Positions 6,731 to 54,624 of a stretch of DNA of 64,000 nt are shown piece by piece. The notes beneath the pieces were generated by a model. It saw only the letters and a list, made by a program, of their open reading frames with translations, searched no databases and was not told where the DNA came from. This DNA is from a virus (taxonomy: Duplodnaviria; Caudoviricetes): IMG/VR virus record IMGVR_UViG_3300032233_002826, positions 54,532 to 118,531 of that record. One strand, written 5' to 3'. Position 1 is the stretch's first letter. Every line of letters begins with the position of its first letter. Made by a program: the position numbers and the translations under genes.

Positions 6731-7421
6731 AAAATAGTGATATTTTTAATTTACAAGTTTTATTATATCTGCTACCCCTTTGGCCCCATTGCCAGAAGGG
6801 GGTTGATTTTTGTGTTAGGGACTAAAGATCCCAGTGACAGCCCAACCAATTTCGGTAGAACCGGGCATTACCGGCATAATCACATTCTGTCCCGTACCGC
6901 ATGGCTAGGTAAGGAAAATTGCACCGCAGGCCCGCAAGACTTACGGCAAAATCATTCTTGCCGATACGAAACGAGAAAAACACAGGAAACAAGATTCGGT
7001 TGGGCTTGGCGAGGATTGATTCCTGACGGGCGATATCGTTGGACTTTGACTCCACAATCCTGCTCTTGTGGTACTCTGTGAACCCAACCGCGAGGATACC
7101 GGACTTGATTCGCTCGATCATGCTCTTCTGTTGCTCGATTTGCTTGCGAGCCTCACAATGACTCGTCGTGAACGGGTTGGCGAAACGGACGCTCGCGATG
7201 ATGGCCTTGAACATAATTGACTCCAAGAAAGTGAGAAAAAAATACCAATGGCTTAAAATTCTACATGGGATTTTATTTTTTTATGGAATCAAGTTAGATA
7301 ATAAGTTGTTGGATAAATGCTAACCAAACTGGGCTGAAAAATAGTGATATTTTTAATTTACAAGTTTTATTATATCTGCTACCCCTTTGGCCCCATTGCC
7401 AGAAGGGGGTTGATTTTTGTG
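6731..7421. repeat. Identical 84-bp intergenic block at 6731-6814 and 7338-7421
   Basis: Direct comparison; contains AT tract, terminator-like hairpin and TTTGTG. Confidence 0.9.
6822..7214 (-). CDS. Hypothetical protein
   Basis: ORF after motif A with GGAG RBS; likely start MFKAII. Confidence 0.55.
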   Translation of the reverse strand: MFKAIIASVRFANPFTTSHCEARKQIEQQKSMIERIKSGILAVGFTEYHKSRIVESKSNDIARQESILAKPNRILFPVFFSFRIGKNDFAVSLAGLRCNFPYLAMRYGTECDYAGNARFYRNWLGCHWDL

Positions 7422-7679
7422 CTAATCCTGAAAGCCACAAGGCGGGGTGGCTTTTTTGAGTTCTGGGTGCTTCCTTTCCATGTCTGCCAGCAGGGTTTTG
7501 GCCGTCCGGCCCACATATCCCAATCTCTTGGCGCAGGCCACGGCGCTGACCCTACTCGCCTTCAGACCAGTATTGGCCTGAAGTTTGAGAGCATGATAGA
7601 GCAAAACAAGCCTGTAGAGGGCGATACCATCCTCGCCCGTAATAGACATGGAGCCGTTCTCGTGAACTTCGACAGGCAT
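7422..7679 (-). CDS. Hypothetical protein
   Basis: ORF after motif A with GGAGG RBS. Confidence 0.7.
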   Translation of the reverse strand: MPVEVHENGSMSITGEDGIALYRLVLLYHALKLQANTGLKASRVSAVACAKRLGYVGRTAKTLLADMERKHPELKKATPPCGFQD

Positions 7680-7873
7680 TTCAACTATCCTCCGGGGGTG
7701 AAAGATCTATATGCCTAACATTCTACATGGGATTTTATTTTTTATTGGCTGCAAGTTGTTGGATAAATGCTAACCAAACTGGGTTAGAAAATAGTGATAT
7801 TTTTAATTTTCTAACTTTTTTATATATTCGTTAGCCTTCCGGCCCTATTGCCGGAAGGGTTTTTATTTTGTGT

Positions 7874-8119
7874 TTAGAATGGTTTTGGTGGATATTCTTT
7901 CCATTGTCCGTCTGGGTGTTGGAACCAGTGTTTGCCAGTTGAAACATCGTAGGCTAGATTGACTGTGGCGTACATGAATCGTTTGGCTTCGCTTTCGTTG
8001 GCCTGTCTGGTGTTGGTTTGTTGGTATTGCTGTTTGATATTGGAGAGTTCTTTGGTTCCGTTCATAGCGAGTCCTAGGATGGTGAGAGCGACTCCGATCC
8101 ATTGCAGGACGATTGGCAT
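7874..8119 (-). CDS. Small protein with N-terminal membrane/signal segment
   Basis: Hydrophobic N-terminus, AGGA RBS. Confidence 0.6.
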   Translation of the reverse strand: MPIVLQWIGVALTILGLAMNGTKELSNIKQQYQQTNTRQANESEAKRFMYATVNLAYDVSTGKHWFQHPDGQWKEYPPKPF

Positions 8120-8292
8120 GGGAAGTTTCCTTTACTTTAGGATGGTTAGGAAGATTTCGATAAAATCGTGAATCATTCGAGAGTATTTGGTATCACAACC
8201 CAAATCCTGCCCGATTTTTATTAATACCAATGCTTGTAGGATTCCGTTCCAGTTTCTGAAAATCTTTTTCATTGTTGTATCCTCCGGTGCAT

Positions 8293-8321
8293 ATAGTATC
8301 GGCATTGTCAAGGGGGTGCAA
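8293..8321 (-). promoter_or_regulatory. Sigma70-like promoter
   Basis: TTGCAC-N17-TACTAT upstream of GGAGG and ATG. Confidence 0.5.
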
Positions 8322-8649
8322 TAAAAAAAAGTTTGTAGTGTTTTATCTTGCCTATTTTGACAGAATCCTATGGATAAATGCTAACTTATGGCATTAAATA
8401 CTATTATCTTGGCTTTTTTTTAGCCAAGATAATAGATTTTGGGTTTTTCTTGACGTTACTTCTTTTCTTTCACAAACTTCTCGACCAATCTGTTGTATTC
8501 CGGGAGATGCCCCAGTTCTTTGAGCATCTCCAGTGCAAGAATCAACTTGCAGTGTAGCATGTTCACTTCGCCCGTTGGCTCTGCTACAACCGCACGCTTC
8601 TCAAACTTCCATTCGGTAGTCATGGGATGGTCGCCTTTCGTTGTTAGAC

Positions 8650-8880
8650 TTACTTCGCAATCTTCACAAGATTTCTTGCATCGGCCAGGCTGTATTCGCC
8701 GCTGATGAGTGCATTATCGGTTCCAAAAGTGCCGTGGAGACTCACGCAGTAACCGCCCTTGAGTTCCACAAGGTCGATCAAGTTAATTAAGGTGAAAGTG
8801 TCGTGAGCGGTTCCGACAGGACAATCACCCGTAAGAGTGGCTTCCCACTTGCCACCGATAGCGTAAACCTTGATTTTCAT
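8650..8880 (-). CDS. Hypothetical protein
   Basis: ORF directly after motif A at 8905. Confidence 0.65.
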   Translation of the reverse strand: MKIKVYAIGGKWEATLTGDCPVGTAHDTFTLINLIDLVELKGGYCVSLHGTFGTDNALISGEYSLADARNLVKIAK

Positions 8881-9012
8881 ATTGCATCCCTTTCTATCTC
8901 TATAACATTCTACACGGGATTTTATTTTTTATTGGCTTGCTGGATAAATGCTAACTTATATTAAATGCCATTATCTTGGCTGTTTAGCCAAGATAATGGG
9001 TTGTGGGTTGTT

Positions 9013-9234
9013 TTATTCGCCTCCGTAATCATCAGCCAAGGGGGTATCATCACCAAAATACCCATAATCTTCATCTGTGCCGAATCCTGCGCTGGTCATT
9101 GCAGAATCGAAGTCTCCGTCCATGTCATCGTTCCACTCTTCGTCATAGCAACTTTCGATTTCGTGAAAGTCGTTATAGTCATCGTAGTTATAGTCATCTA
9201 CGTTGGTTGCATCGACATCATCAGCGTAACTCAT
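9013..9234 (-). CDS. Very acidic small protein
   Basis: 73 aa, D/E-rich with no Lys or Arg; after motif A, AAGGA RBS. Confidence 0.7.
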   Translation of the reverse strand: MSYADDVDATNVDDYNYDDYNDFHEIESCYDEEWNDDMDGDFDSAMTSAGFGTDEDYGYFGDDTPLADDYGGE

Positions 9235-9298
9235 GTCACTTTCCTTGTTTAAGAGTTATCGTCCTTGATCTTATAACATTCTACAATGGATTTTATTT

Positions 9299-9547
9299 TC
9301 AATTATCAGTTGGAAAACTATCGTAGATTTGCCCTTCATCGACCCAACTTTCATTTGGGGTTGGCGTGAGAGTCACAATGTCCTTATCGTCACTATCGAA
9401 TCTGATTCGGTACATGGCACAACGATACAGATTGCCGGGAATAGTATCAACAACCACGCCAGACAACAGACGGCTCTCAGTAATGTCCACAAGTCCGTTC
9501 CAAAGTCTTTTTGCCACCCGGACACGGTCACCATTTTCGCATTTCAT
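9299..9547 (-). CDS. Hypothetical protein
   Basis: ORF with AGGTG RBS. Confidence 0.6.
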   Translation of the reverse strand: MKCENGDRVRVAKRLWNGLVDITESRLLSGVVVDTIPGNLYRCAMYRIRFDSDDKDIVTLTPTPNESWVDEGQIYDSFPTDN

Positions 9548-9565
9548 TTTTCACCTTTCTTTCAA

Positions 9566-9638
9566 TGCGTCCCCAGGGAATCGAACCCTGAACCTAGAGG
9601 TTAAAAGCCCCTTGCTCTGCCAATTGAGCTAGAGACGC
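9566..9638 (-). tRNA. trnK: tRNA-Lys(TTT)
   Basis: Cloverleaf; anticodon loop CTTTTAA; GTTCGATTC T-loop. Confidence 0.92.
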
Positions 9639-9679
9639 TCGTAAATCTATAACATTCTACACGGGATTTTATTTTTTCT

Positions 9680-9874
9680 TCAAATCTTGGAAATCCTGTC
9701 TAAATCATAAACGACCAGACTTTGCTTTCCGTTTGGGGTATCATATTCCACGGTCACGGTCTTTTCCGAAACGTACAGAATCGTAGCCTGCACATACGGT
9801 TCAGTATCGTCGTGAACTTGAACCCAGTAAGGCAACAGAACCGAAACCTTTTCACCGACTTCCACTTCAAACAT
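9680..9874 (-). CDS. Hypothetical protein
   Basis: ORF after motif A at 9911; likely start MFEVEV. Confidence 0.6.
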   Translation of the reverse strand: MFEVEVGEKVSVLLPYWVQVHDDTEPYVQATILYVSEKTVTVEYDTPNGKQSLVVYDLDRISKI

Positions 9875-10112
9875 CGTTTTCCCTTTCGTCTTACAGGCTT
9901 CCACAACATAACATTCTACACGGGATTTTATTTTTTATGGGGCTTGTTGTTGGATAAATGCTAACCTAGAAAAAAAATGAAAAAAAATATTTTTGGAAAG
10001 TTCTATTAGTACGGGGGTCAAATAATAATAAGATATTATTGCAATAATATTTGTGCAAAATAAACCCCCTAGGCAATCTTTCGACTACCTAGGGGGCGTT
10101 GGTTGCTCGCTA

Positions 10113-11054
10113 CTAGGCGCTCATGCTCAAAGCCAGTTCAAGAGCCTTGCGATTATCGGCGGCGCCAGTTCCAAACCACAGGCTATTCATCCTGTTGTCG
10201 GAGTTGCGTCCGCGAGTGTAGTTCAAGTATTCGTTGAACCCGTTGTACGCAGACCACCAAGTTCCCTTGACTCCCGGCAGGGATTGCCGTGGCCCCTCAA
10301 TCGTGGCAAGAACTTCTTCGATGATGTTCTTGGTACGAGTAGGCATATCGGCATCACTGACGTTCTCAACGTCGAGAAGAATCTTGACGTATCGACGCAC
10401 ATCGGCCTGATTGAAATCCTTGCTAGCAAGGTAGCGATACTGATCGGCAGTAGCCTCAAAATCAGCATTTGCCGCGTTCATAATGTCCCGTACCTTTTCA
10501 AGATTGCTGGCAATCTTTCGGGTGTGACGAACCCGAAGAAACTTGCTGGCAGTAGAACAGTGGGCAGCGGCCAACGTATTGGCACATACAACCCGAATCG
10601 GCGTGAAGCCCGGTCGAACGGCAGTAGTTCCATCGTGCGAGTTGCTGAGAAGAATGAACTTCCTCACATCGTCCCCCGGAACAATCACGCTAGGGTCGCG
10701 ATTCAACTCTGCCAAAACCCATATCTTCCTGCCCTCATCAAGAGAACCGGCAGTATGAAGTCGAGCCTCACCACTATCCACAAACGGCTGGAACCAGTCC
10801 AGTGCATCGGCATTCTGGAGCGGTTGGTATCGCGGGCCAACAACGCCAAGAATGCTGCCGTCACTTTCACGAACCGTGGCACGATGACCAACTCTCACAC
10901 CGTCCGCCGTGAACAAGTCGCGGAGCGCCACAGTCCAATCAAGTCCTGCCGCCACGATTGCTTCACGAATCGTAGGAGACTCATTCAATGCCACGCCAAG
11001 GCCATGCCAAGGAGTCTCGCCAACGTAGAACATCTTTTCGACCATATGGGCCAT
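10113..11054 (-). CDS. DUF932-family protein, copy 2
   Basis: Close paralog of 5528..6469 with the same motifs. Confidence 0.85.
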   Translation of the reverse strand: MAHMVEKMFYVGETPWHGLGVALNESPTIREAIVAAGLDWTVALRDLFTADGVRVGHRATVRESDGSILGVVGPRYQPLQNADALDWFQPFVDSGEARLHTAGSLDEGRKIWVLAELNRDPSVIVPGDDVRKFILLSNSHDGTTAVRPGFTPIRVVCANTLAAAHCSTASKFLRVRHTRKIASNLEKVRDIMNAANADFEATADQYRYLASKDFNQADVRRYVKILLDVENVSDADMPTRTKNIIEEVLATIEGPRQSLPGVKGTWWSAYNGFNEYLNYTRGRNSDNRMNSLWFGTGAADNRKALELALSMSA

Positions 11055-11239
11055 GATGAAAAACTCCAAGAGAAAAACACAAGCCACAGTGGCTTGCCTT
11101 AGTCATTACATTCTACATCGACTTTTGTTTTCCAACTTTTTCGGCTCAAACCTTAGGATAAATGCTAACTCAAAGGGAGTAATAAAAACTCCTCCCGCCT
11201 TGAACGGGAGGAGTCTCTACGATTCGATTCCTGCTATCA

Positions 11240-11452
11240 CTAACTGCGGAAGTTTCGACCATTTTCCATGATATGGGCAACCGCTGCCCACGACCATTGA
11301 AAGGCCATACCATTTTCAATGTCGAGACAGGCCACCGTGGCATGACGCTCCTTCCAGCCGATGATCTTCGCGGGCATATCATCAAGCGTACACAAGTTGT
11401 CATCCCGCCACTTTGCCGCTGGACTGTCGTATCCATTTTCAAAACTGTTCAT
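11240..11452 (-). CDS. Hypothetical protein
   Basis: AGGAG RBS before MNSFENG. Confidence 0.6.
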   Translation of the reverse strand: MNSFENGYDSPAAKWRDDNLCTLDDMPAKIIGWKERHATVACLDIENGMAFQWSWAAVAHIMENGRNFRS

Positions 11453-11472
11453 CGCATTTCTCCTTGAAAAGA

Positions 11473-12203
11473 AGCCCCCTCCCGCATTTCGACGGGAGGG
11501 GGCTAGTTGAAGAAAACCTATCACTAAAACTTCGGGAAGTCGCTGTCGATGCTTTCCAACTCCATCACTTTCGCCTTATCCTCATCCACGATGATGAACT
11601 GGTGATTGCGAACATTCGCGAACGTGAGTCCAATCGCCGGGGCGATGTTCTCCAGTTCCTCTGCCGCAACCCGACCATACTGATCGTCATAGTTGACAAC
11701 CACAATCCCGTCCCGCTTCAGGCGGCGAAGCACTTTCTTCGTTAGCCGATGGATGTTATACGGCACTTCATAGCCGCAGTAATCCACCATAACGCCGGGA
11801 ACTCCTTCATTGGCGAGTTCGCAGCAACGCTCGAACGTCATCATTTCTTTCTCCTATGAAGTAACATCGAACACATCAACATAACATTCTACATGGGATT
11901 TTATTTTTCTAATCCCGACTCTATTCCTTTTGCAGATAATACTCTGGCATAATAGAACCAGTTTTAGGACACACTACTAGTTTTGGCATTTGAATACCAA
12001 ACGGCTCATGCATCACTTCGTTTGCCGCCTCATGCCACCCTATATGACATTCAGCAAAGTTTGGCAAAGAATACTTCTGTAGAAAATCCCCAAACTCAAA
12101 ATACGTTTCATCCTGCCAGTAGGCGAAGATAGCCTTTCATTTGATCGTCGTTCATCATGATTCTCCTTGAAAAGCCCCCTCCCGCATTTCGACGGGAGGG
12201 GGC
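11473..12203 (-). terminator. Repeated hairpin ccccctcccgcatttcgacgggaggggg at about 11474 and 12175
   Basis: Identical stem-loop, each followed on the minus strand by T-tract, AGGAG and a start codon. Confidence 0.6.
11524..11844 (-). CDS. Hypothetical protein
   Basis: ORF after motif A with AGGAG RBS. Confidence 0.7.
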   Translation of the reverse strand: MMTFERCCELANEGVPGVMVDYCGYEVPYNIHRLTKKVLRRLKRDGIVVVNYDDQYGRVAAEELENIAPAIGLTFANVRNHQFIIVDEDKAKVMELESIDSDFPKF

Positions 12204-12227
12204 AGTTTAGTTGGATTCTATCATCTA

Positions 12228-12449
12228 CTATCGCAGATACTCCGCCGTCACGCTGTCAATGAACGCCTGCATTTCGTCGTCGATTGGACCGTCCATGAGT
12301 TGCAAGTCCCGCGTTGCGGCATCCTTGAAGTCCTGTCCGTCCGCGTAACACACCACCGTGGTGTGATCACCAAACAGGTGAACAACCACACCCTCATGGC
12401 CGTGAAGCCCTCGCCAGCGGACCACATCGCCCTTCTGAATCTTGTCCAT
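12228..12449 (-). CDS. Hypothetical protein
   Basis: ORF after motif A with GGAG RBS. Confidence 0.65.
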   Translation of the reverse strand: MDKIQKGDVVRWRGLHGHEGVVVHLFGDHTTVVCYADGQDFKDAATRDLQLMDGPIDDEMQAFIDSVTAEYLR

Positions 12450-12656
12450 GACAACTCCGAGTGAGTGAAAGAAACGGCAACCGAACCGAACCCTATAACA
12501 TTCTACATGGGATTTTATTTTTCTAATCCCCCGAGCCTTGTTGGATAAATACTAACTATTTTATTTTATTTTTATGATATTTTTATTTTATGATATTTTA
12601 TTATTATTTTACCCTTCCGGCCCTATTGCCGGAAGGGTATTATATTTTGTGCAAAC

Positions 12657-12935
12657 TTAGTTTTCCATGTCAATCAACATATTTTCTGGAAGCGAGTCCA
12701 AACGAAGAAATACTTCTTCGATTTCTTTTGGACTTGCTTCATCATCCATTTGAGTTGAGTTCTCTCTGTCTATGGTTTTTTCTAATGCTTCGATAATGAC
12801 ATCTTTTGTCACCATGCTCCTATTGTTATCACCCCAACTGCAATCTGGGCTGCTATTGAGAAAAACTTCCCACATTTGAGGACAGTCCCGAAAAATATCA
12901 CTTGCCTCAACAAACTCTATGGTTTTGATTTTCAT
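12657..12935 (-). CDS. Hypothetical protein
   Basis: 92-aa ORF in minus-strand run. Confidence 0.6.
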   Translation of the reverse strand: MKIKTIEFVEASDIFRDCPQMWEVFLNSSPDCSWGDNNRSMVTKDVIIEALEKTIDRENSTQMDDEASPKEIEEVFLRLDSLPENMLIDMEN

Positions 12936-13437
12936 TTTAGTTTCTACTGTAGTGTCGGCTTTTTAAGAGCGATTCTTGAAATATTCGCGGGTTCTTTTCA
13001 TATCCCTACGATTCTCGAAAAAAGTGACGATTTCGACATACACCATATAACCCAAAATCGCTAAAAATATCAGTCCGAACATTTGTTTATTTCACTCCAC
13101 CGAAAATCCAGTTTTTCATTGTGAAAACTTTCCAGCGAGAAATCCAAGACAAAATACAATATTCAGAATCGGTAGAATGAACACAAAAAAGATCAAACCA
13201 GCACGATACATTTTCTTTTCCTTATATCGAGATTCTACTCTACCGAAAAACACTTGTCAAGATAGAAACTGGCATAGTTTCCATTTTCTTTTTTGATCCG
13301 AATCATGGTTCGATTAGGCATGATTGAACCATCACCATATACCACATCGTCATTTGATCCGATTTCGATTTGAACTATTGTACCAGAAAAGATTCGCCCA
13401 TCGTTATAGGTAGCGGTGATTTGTTGTCCGATTTCCA

Positions 13438-13686
13438 TTATTTTCCTCTTCCGATTACAACGCACTGCACGGGCTTCACGCCATTCTCTTCCATTTCGAC
13501 ATAGTAAACATCATGTCTGCCGTTGTACCACGTTTCTTTGCTATCGCCGTTCCAGTTAGAATCTGGAACCAAAGAGCCATTACTCTCCACTTCTGGGTTG
13601 TCATAGCCACCCTCGTAACCGGGGATGACCACCATCATATCGCCCGGATAGTTCTTCAGCCGCTCAATCAGTTCCGAAACAGTCAT
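13438..13686 (-). CDS. Hypothetical phage protein
   Basis: MTVSELIERL..VVIPGYEGGY; motif A and AGGAG upstream. Confidence 0.7.
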   Translation of the reverse strand: MTVSELIERLKNYPGDMMVVIPGYEGGYDNPEVESNGSLVPDSNWNGDSKETWYNGRHDVYYVEMEENGVKPVQCVVIGRGK

Positions 13687-13812
13687 GGCCTTTCTCCTTA
13701 TCCCTATAACATTCTACATAGGATTTTATTTTTTATGGGGCTTGTTGTTGGATAAATGCTAACCTTGTATTTATGGCCCTATCCACTCTTTTGGAGTGGG
13801 TAGGGCTTCCTT

Positions 13813-14379
13813 TCAGTCAGTGATTTCGTAGACCAAACCACCGTCAGTAGTGATTTGCACAATGTTTTCGACACTATAGTTTCGGCAGATAATCGGTTCA
13901 TCAACTTGCTGCCGCGCCCCTTCTTCCTTTTCCGACATAAACCGGTGAACAACCGCAGAGTCCAAGGTGTTGTCATTGGCGTCACGATACTCATAGCCAA
14001 CGCTGTGTCGGATATGGGTTCGGACGTACAACTTATCCTTATGGGTGATGATAGGAGTCCGCTTACCGTCCTCCCGCACAACCCATTCACCCCAAGGCAA
14101 CTTTTCCGAATAGAAAAGTTCTACTTCGCCATTTTCATCGACTGGCTTGTTTTCCTTTTCCCGACGACGACGCACGGCCTTTTCGTAATCTTCGTTACAT
14201 CCGACGTTCACTACGGCAATCTTGGAAACCTCACCAAGATTGTTGGGAACAACAGTGCCATCATCCTCGACGTGCTTCTTACGCAAAACTGGCTTGGTTC
14301 GTGTCGTGAGCGTCGTGAAGAAGGCTCCACGCTTCGACTTCATACGATCAACAAGTTCGGTACGAGTCATGGTCAGCAT
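13813..14379 (-). CDS. Hypothetical phage protein
   Basis: 188 aa after two tandem motif A copies (14403, 14458). Confidence 0.75.
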   Translation of the reverse strand: MLTMTRTELVDRMKSKRGAFFTTLTTRTKPVLRKKHVEDDGTVVPNNLGEVSKIAVVNVGCNEDYEKAVRRRREKENKPVDENGEVELFYSEKLPWGEWVVREDGKRTPIITHKDKLYVRTHIRHSVGYEYRDANDNTLDSAVVHRFMSEKEEGARQQVDEPIICRNYSVENIVQITTDGGLVYEITD

Positions 14380-14606
14380 ATTAGTCCCTTTCTATCCTAG
14401 TAACATTCTACACGGGATTTTATTTTTTAGGCCGCATCATCGGCCCACATTTCTATAACATTCTACATGGGATTTTATTTTTTATGGGGTCGTGTTGCTG
14501 GATAAATGCTAACCTTATTTTAAAAATAATCCTTATTTTATTTTATCATTTTATTATTATTTTTAGTTTGCTATAGGGTTTTTGTTATTTAGTATTTTAT
14601 TTTGTG

Positions 14607-14903
14607 CTAAAGAGTTTGGCTTTTTTTCCAACTCTCCATAAAACTTTGAATATTTTTTGATCCAATGGGATTAGCAGAATGAATAAAATACTTAGGAGGC
14701 TCGTACCCTTTCTCAAAAGCGATTTCAAATAGTTGTTTGAGAAAGACCATGCTTGTATCGTCGCCTCCTAAATCATGGTCAAAACTGATTATATCGGGCA
14801 TACCGTTGGCATTTACCCAATCTATTGCTTCTTTTGATGATCTAACTACGATCCAATCATTAGAAGGTGGAGTCCTAATATCATCTATAAACACTTTGTT
14901 CAT
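14607..14903 (-). CDS. Cyclic-phosphate-processing receiver-like domain protein
   Basis: FIDDIRTPP, ISFDHDLG and IHSANPIG motifs. Confidence 0.65.
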   Translation of the reverse strand: MNKVFIDDIRTPPSNDWIVVRSSKEAIDWVNANGMPDIISFDHDLGGDDTSMVFLKQLFEIAFEKGYEPPKYFIHSANPIGSKNIQSFMESWKKSQTL

Positions 14904-15068
14904 TGGTCTGGAGAATCTCTGATTGGTTTTAAAACCTTCATTCAATCATTCATGCAATAATCACTTCTTCAATAAAGTTATTATTATTTCGCTGCACATG
15001 AACGCTAAAATAAATCCAAATAGTGCTTCCAGTAATAACATACTGGCGATATGTAGATTTATTATTTA

Positions 15069-15299
15069 TTATTTTACGCTGCGTCTGAAAAACCTGATTG
15101 CCAACATATCATCGCCAAAATTAATCATGACATTTTGATCTACTTCGTATACGCGAGTAGGCTTTCCTTTCCCGCTTTGGTGGAAGATTTTTTCTGCAAC
15201 CTTTGCGCGGCCTGCACTCACAAGGTGGCTCATAAGACCGCTTGCTACAACATAACTAACGTCCAGACGTTCCGCAACCTGCTTTGCTGTAATCTTCAT
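15069..15299 (-). CDS. Small winged-HTH-like protein, paralog of 29611..29922
   Basis: TAKQVAERLDVSYVVA helix-turn-helix; GKGKPTRVYE wing. Confidence 0.65.
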   Translation of the reverse strand: MKITAKQVAERLDVSYVVASGLMSHLVSAGRAKVAEKIFHQSGKGKPTRVYEVDQNVMINFGDDMLAIRFFRRSVK

Positions 15300-15923
15300 A
15301 AAACTCTTTCTTTATAGTGGGCTATCGACACATTATTGTAACATTCTACACGGGATTTTATTTGCGTCAATCGTCGATTTCTACCAGAAAACCATCCTCA
15401 CCCTCTTTCAGATTGGTATAGATAACAATCTGTCCATATTCATCTGTTGCTATCTCAACCCACGATGGCAGAAAGTTCTGCATACTAACCCGTAAATCTT
15501 CTAGTGTCATATTGTCCATACAATCGCCTTTCAGTGTGATGGAAACAGCCCTTACGCAGAGATCATATTCAACTATAATATTTGATGGACGCTTGGCTGA
15601 TGGCGGAGCGAGTCTTTTGACGCTTGGGACGACTATCGTGCTGGCCGCTGCCAGAGCGGTGCGCAGAGTGGCCTTTGCCCAACTTCCAAATCGGCCGCAC
15701 ATTGAGTTTGATTTTCATTTTAATCACATTACATAATAAACGGCGTAACCATTTGTTACCATAGAGATTGCCTCGCTCTCTGGTAATCTCACAATAGAAC
15801 CGCGAGAAATGTTCTCAAAGTCCCGAATGAACTGAACGCGGTATCTCATTGGTTGATCCTCTACTACCTAACATTCTACATGGGATTTTATTTTAGATAT
15901 ACCGGCTGTAAATGGATCGACTT

Positions 15924-16001
15924 AGTGGGCGACGGGATTTGAACCCGCAACTCCTCTTGTATTTAAACAAGTGGAACTCTAACCGATTGAGTTACGCCCA
16001 C
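15924..16001 (-). tRNA. tRNA-like RNA with enlarged anticodon arm, identity undetermined
   Basis: Normal acceptor, D and T arms; anticodon arm CCACTTGT-TTAAAT-ACAAGAGG is 22 nt instead of 17. Confidence 0.7.
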
Positions 16002-16022
16002 CGATAGTTTTACGATAAGTGT

Positions 16023-16130
16023 CCGGTATCACGCACCTACCAACCCGATACCTTTCGGGTATCTAGGTTTCTATCCGACCCCTGTTTGTAATCAGCGAAT
16101 CTTTTACGCCCCGATTCTTACCCGCACCAG
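16023..16130 (-). ncRNA. Candidate structured RNA
   Basis: Closing stem CTGGTG/TACCGG, GAATC/GATTC stem and GATACC hairpin with GAAA loop. Confidence 0.4.
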
Positions 16131-16132
16131 TA

Positions 16133-16221
16133 TGGAGCGACCATACCGATTTGGAACCGACCACGCCCGCTTCCGTCAAGTTGCGAACTTGCTCAGGCGA
16201 GAGGCATCGGCTACTGATTGT
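16133..16221 (-). pseudogene. Degenerate tRNA-like element ending in CCA
   Basis: CAAG-TTCGCAA-CTTG anticodon-like hairpin, weak T-arm, mismatched acceptor stem. Confidence 0.4.
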
Positions 16222-16223
16222 AT

Positions 16224-16360
16224 TGGAGCGTGTGTCGGGGATCCAACCCGACAGAGAGCAGCATAAGCCTTACCATAGCCTAGTTCGGCAACCCCATACA
16301 CCCCTTAGATGCAGACGCTGTTTGCTGGGCTATCTCTACGGTATCAGCAGATACACACGC
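16224..16360 (-). ncRNA. 137-nt tRNA-like RNA with encoded CCA
   Basis: Perfect acceptor GCGTGTG/CACACGC-T-CCA, T-arm TCGGG-TTGGATC-CCCGA, very long central arm. Confidence 0.65.
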
Positions 16361-16412
16361 AAGTTTGTTTTACAGTTCTATAAGAGCCTATTCTGTTTTT
16401 TTATAAGCCAAA

Positions 16413-16642
16413 TACGGTTGGTTATTCCGCTACCTTTACGTCCACCATGCTCTGGCAAGACATGGCTAAGGACGAGTTTGTACGGGCGGGTGGGTTCGCT
16501 TTGGATTGTCATTGGGTATCCTACTACCCTCGATCTGGAGCTTGACCACCTACTTCACTGCCCGGCTTTCCATCGTAGGAGACAGTCAGCCATTGAGGAG
16601 CCGCTCACTGCGGCCTAGCAGCCCGTTTTGTTTCGACAATCC
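16413..16642 (-). ncRNA. Unassigned structured ncRNA, copy 1 (core 16482-16642)
   Basis: Begins right after motif A at 16647; helices covary with copy 2. Confidence 0.75.
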
Positions 16643-17129
16643 TATGACATTCTACATAGGATTTTATTTTTTGTCTAGGGAAGGACTCTGCCTTTCAGCG
16701 GAGTCCTTCCCTGTTGCCGCCACAAATCACGCCTAATCTAGTCCCTCAGCATGGACCCACGGATGTTTGTGTGGGAGTCACATCTTTATTATCCCACATC
16801 CCCTCTAAAATATAAATGCAATGCACAAGTTTATTTCACCTTGCGAGGGTTTCGCCGCCAGCGTCCCGGCGGGTTATTGTTAGGGACGGATGGATTCGTT
16901 TTAGGTTGTCAACAGTGTGCTATCACCTCGACCCACCACTTGACCATCTACTTCACTGCCCGCCTCCCCATCATAGCAGACGGTTTGGCATTGAGGAGTT
17001 GCTCATGCAACCTAGCAGTCCCTTTGTTTCGACAATCCTATGACATTCTACATAGGATTTTATTTTTTGTCTAGGGAAGGACTCTGCCTTTCAGCGGAGT
17101 CCTTCCCTGTTGCCGCCACAAATCACGCC
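16627..17129. repeat. Identical 107-bp direct repeat at 16627-16733 and 17023-17129
   Basis: Contains terminator-like hairpin, motif A and the 5' end of the ncRNA. Confidence 0.92.
16741..17038 (-). ncRNA. Unassigned structured ncRNA, copy 2 (core 16882-17038)
   Basis: Begins right after motif A at 17043; helices covary with copy 1. Confidence 0.75.
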
Positions 17130-17326
17130 GCTTCACGATCTTCACGATCCAAACCGCATTCTTCAAACAACTCCAACTCCATCTCTGCCTGCACTTCGGC
17201 TTCAATAGCAGCCATTTCTTCGCTCAAATCATCTTCGCCATAGACCATCCTCATGTTGTTGTCATCATCATGACGGGATTCGATTGCCCAAAGAAACTGC
17301 TGAAGTTCATCATCAAACTTAGACAT
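17123..17326 (-). CDS. Small acidic hypothetical protein
   Basis: GGGAG RBS before MSKFDDE; terminator follows. Confidence 0.65.
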   Translation of the reverse strand: MSKFDDELQQFLWAIESRHDDDNNMRMVYGEDDLSEEMAAIEAEVQAEMELELFEECGLDREDREAA

Positions 17327-17567
17327 TTTAAGTCTCCCATGATTAGGACAACCAGTGTTGCCCATGCTTCTATAACATTCTACATGGGATTTTATTTTTC
17401 TGCCCTGTCGATTTTTTTGGCTATTGGATAAAGGCTAACTCTGACTAGAGTTCCAAGTTATTGGATAAAGGCTAACTGGCTATTTATTTTTATTTTATTA
17501 GAAAATATGTAGAAAAAGAAGGTTTATTAATTGGTAATGGCTCCTAATTAATATTTGTGCAGATTGA

Positions 17568-17849
17568 CTACACTTCTGAAAACCCAACCATTTCCACCCT
17601 ATATTTTTTATTATCAAATTCGATTACATCACCAACACTAACGCTGGGATGCTGTCTGGGCTGAAAATCATTCTGACCATAACGAAAAATAATTTGAAGG
17701 CACTCATCAAGAGAAACTCTCTTGTCGTGATAATCCTCCATGATGAACCTGTTCTCAGGAACATCAACAATTCTAATCTCGCCGGGATTCCCAAAAGCGA
17801 GCATTTGAACTTTGAAACAAGTGTATCTATGTTCTGGAAGTGTCATCAT
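17568..17849 (-). CDS. Hypothetical protein
   Basis: AGGAG RBS; PSVSVGDVI motif near C-terminus. Confidence 0.65.
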   Translation of the reverse strand: MMTLPEHRYTCFKVQMLAFGNPGEIRIVDVPENRFIMEDYHDKRVSLDECLQIIFRYGQNDFQPRQHPSVSVGDVIEFDNKKYRVEMVGFSEV

Positions 17850-18208
17850 TTTTTGTCTCCTGTATTCCTAACTTCTCAGAAATGCTGAAAATGCTCGCAT
17901 CTTCTCAAAATGAACCTTCAATGACTGAAACCTCATGTTGAGTTCAACAAATCCTTTGATGTCTGTAGGGTCTACCTGAAATACATCCATAGCAAACCTA
18001 ACTTCTGCAATATCTCGCAGCAAATTATCCTTGAAAATTGACTCGCATGTTTCCAAAGTACGGACACAGAGTCCAGACGAAGTTTGACCCTCTTTTTTTT
18101 CGTTCATGGCTATGATCCTATCCATGTTGCTAATGAGTTCGTTGAATTCCACTTTTTTCTTCTAATCCTATAACATTCTATATGGGATTTTATTCTGGTT
18201 CGACCAGC

Positions 18209-54375: not shown

Positions 54376-54624
54376 AGCATAAGTGCCAAGAGTTCGTTCC
54401 TAACATTTTCTGGCAGGTTAATGTTTAACAAAACTTTCAGCACAGTCTTTTTAAGATGATTGGGCATATTTTTATTATTAACCCAATCTGTTATGTTGTC
54501 GAATTCTTTAACATCTTTTGTCAAAACTTTAAGGTCTATAGTTCTAAAAAAAGGGTTGTCTGTCAGGGTTACTACAGAATTGTCCAAGTTATTGATAAAT
54601 TCAAAAAATTCAATATTGTTCATA

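Follow-up and report, generated by a model that had tools for sequence, protein, structure and literature searches.

What is encoded by the two diverged copies of a short element that lie on the minus strand, each behind the same promoter-like motif (motif A), in the middle of a viral tRNA cluster? The window (the whole stretch of 64,000 nt analysed here, positions 54,532 to 118,531 of the IMG/VR record IMGVR_UViG_3300032233_002826) is part of a 118.5-kb viral record with a CheckV completeness estimate of 23%, and the region around the element contains 15 transfer RNA (tRNA) genes and few long open reading frames (ORFs). The original prediction, made from the letters of the window, described a compact, tertiary-folded non-coding RNA without a known family. 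Comparative analysis indicates with high confidence that the element is a real structured, previously uncatalogued and phage-specific non-coding RNA family; a four-way junction, a kink-turn-like loop, a predicted 6-bp loop-loop contact, near-invariant junction strands and the lack of an Rfam match all agree with that description, but the pseudoknot proposed with it is not supported.

A scan of IMG/VR with an invariant linker motif of the element gave seven loci, and a covariance model (CM; model R1) was built from the first nine sequences. The same linker motif in contigs of JGI and other metagenomes yielded 30 more matches scoring with the model, and a scan with the 3' strand added two further members, L133 and L134 (homologous loci bear L numbers), whose junction strands are slightly different. 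The family comprises 41 matches, 34 of them distinct, with CM scores of 88-211 bits, all in viral or unbinned environmental contigs. A relaxed pattern scan of IMG/VR returned 65 loci, among which only the seven known ones score with the model, and the linker motif has three chance hits, none scoring, in 185,579 prokaryote species genomes (GTDB). Rfam 15 contains no match to the whole window at gathering thresholds or to positions 15700-17700 at E<=10, as had been anticipated, the hits at the latter level being rejected as chance (Ref55, U7, and EGFOA-assoc-1 with 18 bits vs a 224.5-bit cut-off). A BLAST search against 50,697 phage records matched neither the region nor a homolog, and no cultured phage with DNA-level similarity was found, the best helicase matches being at most 33% identical. 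A PEP-CTERM-type phosphoesterase, for which the nearest Atlas cluster is mostly Planctomycetota, provides a weak lead to the host.

The secondary structure was assessed on the core alignment A3 (39 sequences, 32 distinct rows, without the later members L133 and L134). Judged by covariation, the fold is largely established as a four-way junction, in which P1 is the predicted closing helix and P3, P3b and P4(-P5) radiate. The core helices (P1, the two inner P2 pairs, P3, the base of P3b, P4 and the start of P5) are paired in 99.5% of cells, 11 pairs are changed on both sides, and four of five measures were reached by no shuffle; sliding the partner strand by 1-3 columns lowers the core pairing to 32-51%. 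The three compensatory helices noticed between the window copies correspond to P3 (GGCCGC/GCGGCT vs GGTTGC/GCAACT), P1 (ACGGGC/GCCCGT vs AGGGAC/GTCCCT) and P4 (GGTGG/CCACC vs GATGG/CCATC), and the search of viral metagenomes that had been proposed as a check shows that all three still covary among 32 distinct homologs. P1 occurs in three versions in the family (AGGGAC/GTCCCT, ACGGGC/GCCCGT and GTTGGT/GCCAAC), P4 has A-T, G-C, C-G and G-T variants, and in P3 the pairs 36-48, 37-47 and 38-46 covary, with five different helices in the core alignment and a sixth in L134. A further helix believed to be kept, CTGCT/GGCAG, has no informative variation, and its outer pairs compete with P1 and the base of P3b.

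Two architectural forms share this core. Class A (15 distinct sequences, including both window copies) carries a 37-nt P3b arm, and its 45-pair structure shows 99.0% pairing, both sides having changed in 17 pairs; in class B, the short form (17 distinct sequences), P3b is cut to 2-3 pairs and the distal P4-P5 arm is different. The linkers reported as invariant have fared unequally: GTGAAGTAG, GTCAAG and CGAA are nearly invariant family-wide, but GAAACAAA and CTCCTCAAT are invariant only between the window copies. The junction strand CAGTGAAGTA is identical in 39/39 matches of the alignment and differs in L133 and L134.

Around 60 of the 760 paired cells hold G-U, for which the plus strand would have A-C; this identifies the RNA strand as the minus one, as had been proposed from the window copies. 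The same count bears on the suggestion that the locus is plus-strand protein-coding sequence (ORFs 16751..17074 and 16151..16618) or a DNA-level element. An opposite-strand ORF of 93-140 aa does overlap the element in the nine loci first examined, and the plus strand also folds stably; nevertheless, the antisense frame is interrupted by stops in L010, L006, L005, L008 and L004 and shifted between the window copies, 26-30-nt indels separate class A from class B, the helix substitutions are compensatory and the promoters point the opposite way. All six reading frames are broken or frameshifted among the homologs, the sense frames being full of stops. The antisense-ORF reading was rejected, as its frame is not conserved among the homologs, and a coding or DNA-level role is extremely improbable.

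As regards the tertiary structure, the original prediction had two long-range helices crossing a 5' TTGTC/GACAA helix. The latter can be drawn in both window copies, but most homologs have TTGACAA in the leader, and 63% of cells pair, vs 60.7% in shuffles, with 88/500 shuffles as high; the crossing helices, and with them the pseudoknot, lose their support because this 5' helix pairs hardly better than shuffles. Better supported is a 6-bp kissing loop between the apical loop of P3b (L3b) and the loop of the P6 hairpin (L6), predicted from six complementary bases that are 100% paired in 15/15 class-A sequences. Two positions of the contact show compensatory changes, namely a C-G/U-A split of 9 to 6 and a G-C pair that is replaced by C-G in copy 1 and L115. 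Both positions distinguish the window copies from each other (TGCTAT/ATAGCA in copy 2, TCCTAC/GTAGGA in copy 1), and the loops of each copy match one another and not those of the paralog. Between P5 and P6, both strands of an asymmetric loop contain GA, and the loop has a 3-nt bulge. By consensus reading, it would be a canonical kink-turn in class B (GGC-T-GA-GGCA opposite TGCC-TGT-GA-C-GCC), and in class A (GGGT-C-GA-GGTG opposite CACT-GTT-GA-CA-ACCC) it has one extra base compared with the consensus, and two members have T at position 2n. A kink-turn would fold P6 back towards the neighbouring P3b arm, which makes an intramolecular kiss plausible, and the kissing loop and the kink-turn together are probable. 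A pairing of the junction strand TGCTA with TAGCA, a pentamer also present in the P3b loop, was rejected for class A; copy 1 and L115 alter the loops and not the junction strand. In an all-against-all covariation scan for further tertiary pairs, the signal was swamped by shared descent.

Two fully complementary 6-nt hairpin loops in one molecule could also pair between molecules and form dimers or rings, as in a structural or motor RNA like phi29 pRNA or in the cage-forming ROOL and GOLLD RNAs. The mutual incompatibility of the paralog loop pairs is what would be expected if cross-assembly must be avoided, and large phage RNAs next to tRNA genes are known. However, the 17 class-B sequences keep the core and have neither loop, a contact within one molecule is what the kink-turn and the similar lengths of the arms would favour, and the Rfam models of pRNA, ROOL and GOLLD do not match, so that an assembly of this kind is quite unlikely.

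The search confirmed two diverged minus-strand copies, each after motif A, with 15-16 nt between the RNA and the promoter cassette (Table 1). The 107-nt cassette includes an upstream hairpin, the predicted promoter (TAGACA-17-TAGAAT) and the 15-16-nt leader, and its identity stops at the 5' edge of P1. The copies are 85% identical across a 300-nt alignment and 72.5% identical in the RNA bodies alone. Since the cassette identity ends exactly at the start of P1 and the bodies are so much less similar, the sequences indicate that an old pair of paralogs, and not a fresh tandem duplication, stands behind a promoter cassette that was homogenised or shuffled recently. Copy 2 is 98.6% identical to its counterpart in another viral contig, L007, and the closest relative of copy 1 is L115 (80.5%). 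Two copies were found only in the record of the window, and one in each of the four other large viral records searched.

Motif A is promoter-like and predicted to be of the sigma-70-like type; its core, ATGTAGAATGT, occurs 52 times in the window with <=1 mismatch, 51 times on the minus strand, vs 1.8 occurrences expected. The 5' leaders in homologs are about 8-35 nt long and differ in sequence, the P1 edge being fixed, and no intrinsic terminator was found 3' of the RNA on the minus strand. At 16638-16663 and 17034-17059, the -10 box lies within a 9-bp inverted repeat (AATCCTATG...CATAGGATT) that is not shared by the other motif-A copies inspected; it could be an operator or a terminator-like hairpin on the plus strand. 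A 12-mer, TTGACAATACAA, recurs at borders of RNA modules, for example at L009:9783-9812 and in the 5' leaders of most homologs; at L009 it provides the next promoter with its -35 box (TTGACA, 17 nt, TATAAT), and in the homolog leaders it has no matching -10 box. This 12-mer may mark cassette borders.

A possible clue to the function of the RNA lies in its closing stack. P1 consists of 6 bp and a constant U-C opposition and abuts the 5-bp P4; this stack, as well as GG-T(insert)CGAATCC, is present in all members. The strand GG-T(~60-nt insert)CGAATCC-ATC-C-GTCCCT-A can be read as a standard T-arm in which the kink-turn arm replaces position 55, continued by a 7-nt acceptor strand and a discriminator-like A. 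With the insert replaced by one T, ARAGORN at an 80% threshold called a tRNA in 13/31 sequences vs 10/620 shuffles (1.6%), a comparison that is partly circular, as the added T completes the T-loop. The RNA may have originated as a tRNA whose T-loop received an inserted arm.

The overall best explanation, put forward tentatively and with its chances set just below even, is a phage-specific structured non-coding RNA that is tRNA-like, is processed and acts in trans via a protein; the tRNA-like acceptor/T-arm reading and the tRNA-cluster context suggest a processed, protein-binding RNA more than the alternatives. Each window copy would be transcribed from its own sigma-70-like phage promoter. In the long form, where the P4-P5 arm also has a TCAA/GAAT internal loop, the kink-turn-like bend would turn the terminal hairpin back, its loop pairing over 6 bp with the adjacent P3b loop and clamping the fold. 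P1 (6 bp and the U-C mismatch) stacked on P4 (5 bp) would copy the 7+5 acceptor/T-arm stack of tRNA, and this likeness leads to the proposal that both flanks, leader and trailer, are cut off by the machinery of tRNA processing (RNase P, 3' trimming), for which the case is suggestive and still somewhat doubtful. After maturation, the RNA would work in trans on a tRNA-handling protein of the host or the phage, for which it would be a stable tRNA-like decoy or a cofactor; this particular role is the favoured one and yet, taken by itself, rather unlikely. Paralogs with non-interchangeable kissing loops would have been brought under one recently homogenised promoter cassette.

A number of results weigh against this explanation. 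ARAGORN calls no tRNA in the native sequences (0/32 even at the 80% threshold) or, at the default threshold, in the insert-deleted ones, and the D and anticodon arms of the calls described above contradict the covariation-supported P3, the D and anticodon positions being occupied by a 6-bp tetraloop hairpin and a variable arm; because of this, the tRNA likeness is confined to the acceptor/T stack. CCA is not encoded in the RNA. There is no consistently adjacent protein gene, the best neighbour being present in 25/39 loci and absent from the window, and no L7Ae, Ro60 or RtcB gene and no partner protein were found in the records searched, which are mostly fragments. The folding-energy z-scores of the minus strand (-1.5 and -0.9) are not significant, and the plus strand folds as well or better; much of the variation behind the covariation comes from few lineages (copy 1 and L115; the class A/B split) and is partly confounded by descent. 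Finally, a junction with nearly invariant strands and peripheral clamps that may be absent is just as typical of riboswitch aptamers and ribozymes.

The last point leads to the idea of a stand-alone ligand-binding aptamer, riboswitch-like or acting as a sponge for a metabolite or signalling nucleotide, where the junction strands would form the pocket pre-organised by the kink-turn and the kiss. Conservation is indeed concentrated in the junction strands (TGCTA, CAGTGAAGTA), the peripheral arms being swapped or lost between class A and class B, and a kink-turn-enabled loop-loop clamp between adjacent arms is the layout of the lysine riboswitch. Nonetheless, neither the lysine riboswitch nor any other Rfam riboswitch family matches at E<=10, no ORF or expression platform follows the RNA, the next elements being other small RNAs or promoters, and we know of no RNA sponge for signalling nucleotides. 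A hairpin of ~39 nt downstream of the RNA, the 3' arm of which repeats the P1 5' strand AGGGAC, was considered as an expression platform and rejected: in L115 it shows no covariation with P1, and across most homologous loci the spacing between hairpin and RNA varies from 7 to ~380 nt. An aptamer is therefore improbable. Similarly improbable is a broader proposal, in which the invariant four-way-junction core, clamped by the kink-turn and the kiss, would be the active site or binding pocket of a new phage RNA class used in infection, as a ribozyme or for the capture of a small molecule (e.g., an immune signalling nucleotide), and not a passive decoy.

A new ribozyme, such as a self-cleaver involved in cutting a precursor of several RNAs, would fit the ribozyme-level complexity of the fold, the invariant junction and the position of the RNA among tightly packed small RNA genes, and pistol self-cleavers do occur in the related contigs L007 and L115. 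On the other side, a promoter of its own 8-35 nt upstream of nearly every copy means that a 5' cut is hardly needed, 125-150 nt is large for a small self-cleaver, and no candidate cleavage site stands out. No Rfam ribozyme family matches; the hammerhead, hairpin, twister, twister-sister, pistol, hatchet and HDV-like (hepatitis delta virus) models found nothing in 15700-17700 at E<=10, and the same library finds pistol in the related contigs. A catalytic function is accordingly given a slim chance. The pistol ribozymes mentioned (L007:2645-2707 and L115:3507-3569, both on the minus strand) score above the Rfam gathering threshold, at ~56 bits, each with a tRNA-Arg gene nearby; the window yielded none.

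Table 1. Coordinates of the RNA copies, their parts and the neighbouring features (window positions unless stated otherwise).
Feature	Position	Strand	Remarks
RNA copy 2	16882..17023	-	First to last base of P1; 142 nt; long form (class A); CM score 193.9 bits
RNA copy 1	16482..16626	-	145 nt; class A; CM score 170.7 bits
P3 hairpin, copy 2	16998..17012	-	GGTTGC-ATGA-GCAAC
P3 hairpin, copy 1	16600-16615	-	GGCCGC-AGTGA-GCGGC
P3b arm, copy 2	16959..16995	-	Apical loop TGCTAT at 16973-16978
P3b arm, copy 1	16561-16597	-	Apical loop TCCTAC at 16575-16580
Junction strand, copy 2	16949..16958	-	CAGTGAAGTA; copy 1: 16551-16560
P4-P5-P6 arm, copy 2	16889..16948	-	P4 GATGG/CCATC, internal loop TCAA/GAAT, P5, kink-turn-like loop (CGA opposite GTTGACA), P6 hairpin with loop ATAGCA
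P4-P5-P6 arm, copy 1	16489-16550	-	Loop GTAGGA at 16519-16524
Loop L6, copy 2	16918..16923	-	ATAGCA; complementary to L3b TGCTAT (16973-16978), 6 bp
3' strand, copy 2	16882..16897	-	GAAT-CCATC-C-GTCCCT; with GATGG-T (16943-16948) can be read as tRNA T-arm and 7-nt acceptor strand
Promoter (motif A), copy 2	17045..17073	-	Predicted; TAGACA, 17 nt, TAGAAT; then leader 17024-17038
Promoter, copy 1	16649..16677	-	Predicted; identical to that of copy 2; then leader 16627-16642
Promoter cassette, copy 2	17023..17129	-	107 nt; 100% identical to 16627-16733
Promoter cassette, copy 1	16627..16733	-	107 nt; 100% identical to 17023-17129
Hairpin motif	16732-16770	-	~39 nt (CGTGGGTCCATGCTGAGGGACTAGATT...); between the window copies
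tRNA-like RNA	16224-16360	-	137 nt; 7-bp acceptor, T-arm TCGGG-TTGGATC-CCCGA, encoded CCA
Odd tRNA	15923-16002	-	Rfam 47.5 bits; no anticodon assigned by ARAGORN
cRec domain protein	14607-14945	-	112 aa; PF20274, E = 1.6e-22; ~1.5 kb downstream of the RNA
CCA-adding-enzyme family ORF (tRNA nucleotidyltransferase/poly(A) polymerase)	G000:C1:39109-39507 (outside the window)	+	484 aa; PF01743, E = 2.3e-21

In all the longer loci, tRNA-rich regions surround the RNA. Three conserved RNA modules, variable in order and spacing, are located 3' of it: the ~39-nt hairpin, a 137-nt tRNA mimic and an odd tRNA. The 137-nt RNA, which appears to have its own TATAGAAC-type promoter at ~16385, is 86-94% conserved downstream of the RNA in L007, L109, L094, L115, L010 and L092. 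Relatives of the odd tRNA lie 430-550 nt downstream of the RNA in L009, L073 and L115, and those in L009 and L073 have a T-arm, GATGG-TTCGAAT-CCATC, in common with P4 of the RNA. The window region 7000-18000 contains ~17 minus-strand promoter motifs in 11 kb and few long ORFs, and its G+C content of 42-50% is above that of the rest of the window, which suggests an extensive field of genes for small RNAs and very small proteins.

Among the protein genes, the best neighbour encodes a conserved protein of 150-190 aa that begins MPNWCMNTL... and is without a Pfam match; 25 loci carry it (L004, L007, L008, L009 and 21 more), the gene being located 100-1000 nt upstream of the RNA and, in 24 of them, on the same strand. 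For the cRec family, which has a member downstream of the window copies and was not found adjoining the RNA at other loci, a role in phage RNA repair is predicted, namely the processing of cyclic phosphate ends (PMC7824862), and the domain has been linked to RNA ligases in jumbo phages. The CCA-adding-enzyme family ORF elsewhere in the record indicates that the phage may add CCA to its own tRNAs and tRNA-like RNAs.

In the complexity of its fold, with a four-way junction, a kink-turn-like bend, a loop-loop clamp and near-invariant junction strands, the family is at the level of riboswitches and ribozymes, and it provides a testable substrate for phage RNA roles, the candidates being a tRNA-enzyme decoy, an RNA-repair cofactor, a ligand binder and a catalyst. 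Its entry in RNA family libraries would stop its annotation as a spurious antisense ORF. With the lysine riboswitch, the RNA shares a multi-helix junction, invariant core strands and an arm with an internal-loop motif and a kink-turn, the loop of which kisses the adjacent arm; the differences are four helices instead of five, the kink-turn arm being last and not first, the lack of sequence or CM similarity, the lack of a downstream gene or expression platform and the occurrence in phages only. Like the window RNA, phi29 pRNA is encoded by a phage, has a promoter, falls in the size range of 120-170 nt and combines a multi-helix junction with complementary hairpin loops, but its junction is three-way and its loops pair between molecules, whereas the family described here has a four-way junction and lacks the loops in its short form.

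With tRNAs and tRNA-like domains (that of transfer-messenger RNA (tmRNA), and YrlA), the common features are a 6+1-bp closing helix abutting a 5-bp helix, the 3' strand CGAATCC and the discriminator-like A; this stack geometry is the one read by RNase P and the CCA-adding enzyme. The D-loop, the anticodon loop, an intact T-loop and an encoded CCA are absent from the window RNA. ARAGORN and Rfam (RF00005) find the ordinary tRNAs of the window and not this RNA, there is no ARAGORN or Rfam call of tmRNA, the Y RNA (YrlA) model of Rfam does not match, and the Ro60 domain PF05731 does not occur in the 118.5-kb record, which covers an estimated 23% of the genome.

The small stable RNAs of phage tRNA clusters have been known since RNAC (species 1, 139 nt) and RNAD (species 2, 119 nt) of phage T4, the roles of which are still unknown (PMC3014915, PMC9697503). 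Both are non-coding RNAs of similar size to the window RNA, and RNAC ends in a canonical tRNA-type T-arm and an acceptor-like strand, as in the acceptor/T stack described above. A cmsearch of T4 positions 69000-74000 with model R1 and filters off gave no hit that exceeded 9.2 bits and none that fell on rnaC or rnaD, so that no homology was detected. The T-loop of RNAC is intact, whereas the window RNA has a ~60-nt kink-turn arm in the T-loop, a four-way junction with a predicted kissing loop and a promoter for each copy. RNAC and RNAD are the closest functional analogues of the window RNA, to which the latter adds a well-defined new example with 34 distinct natural sequences, two architectural forms on one core and a paralog pair with non-interchangeable kissing loops.

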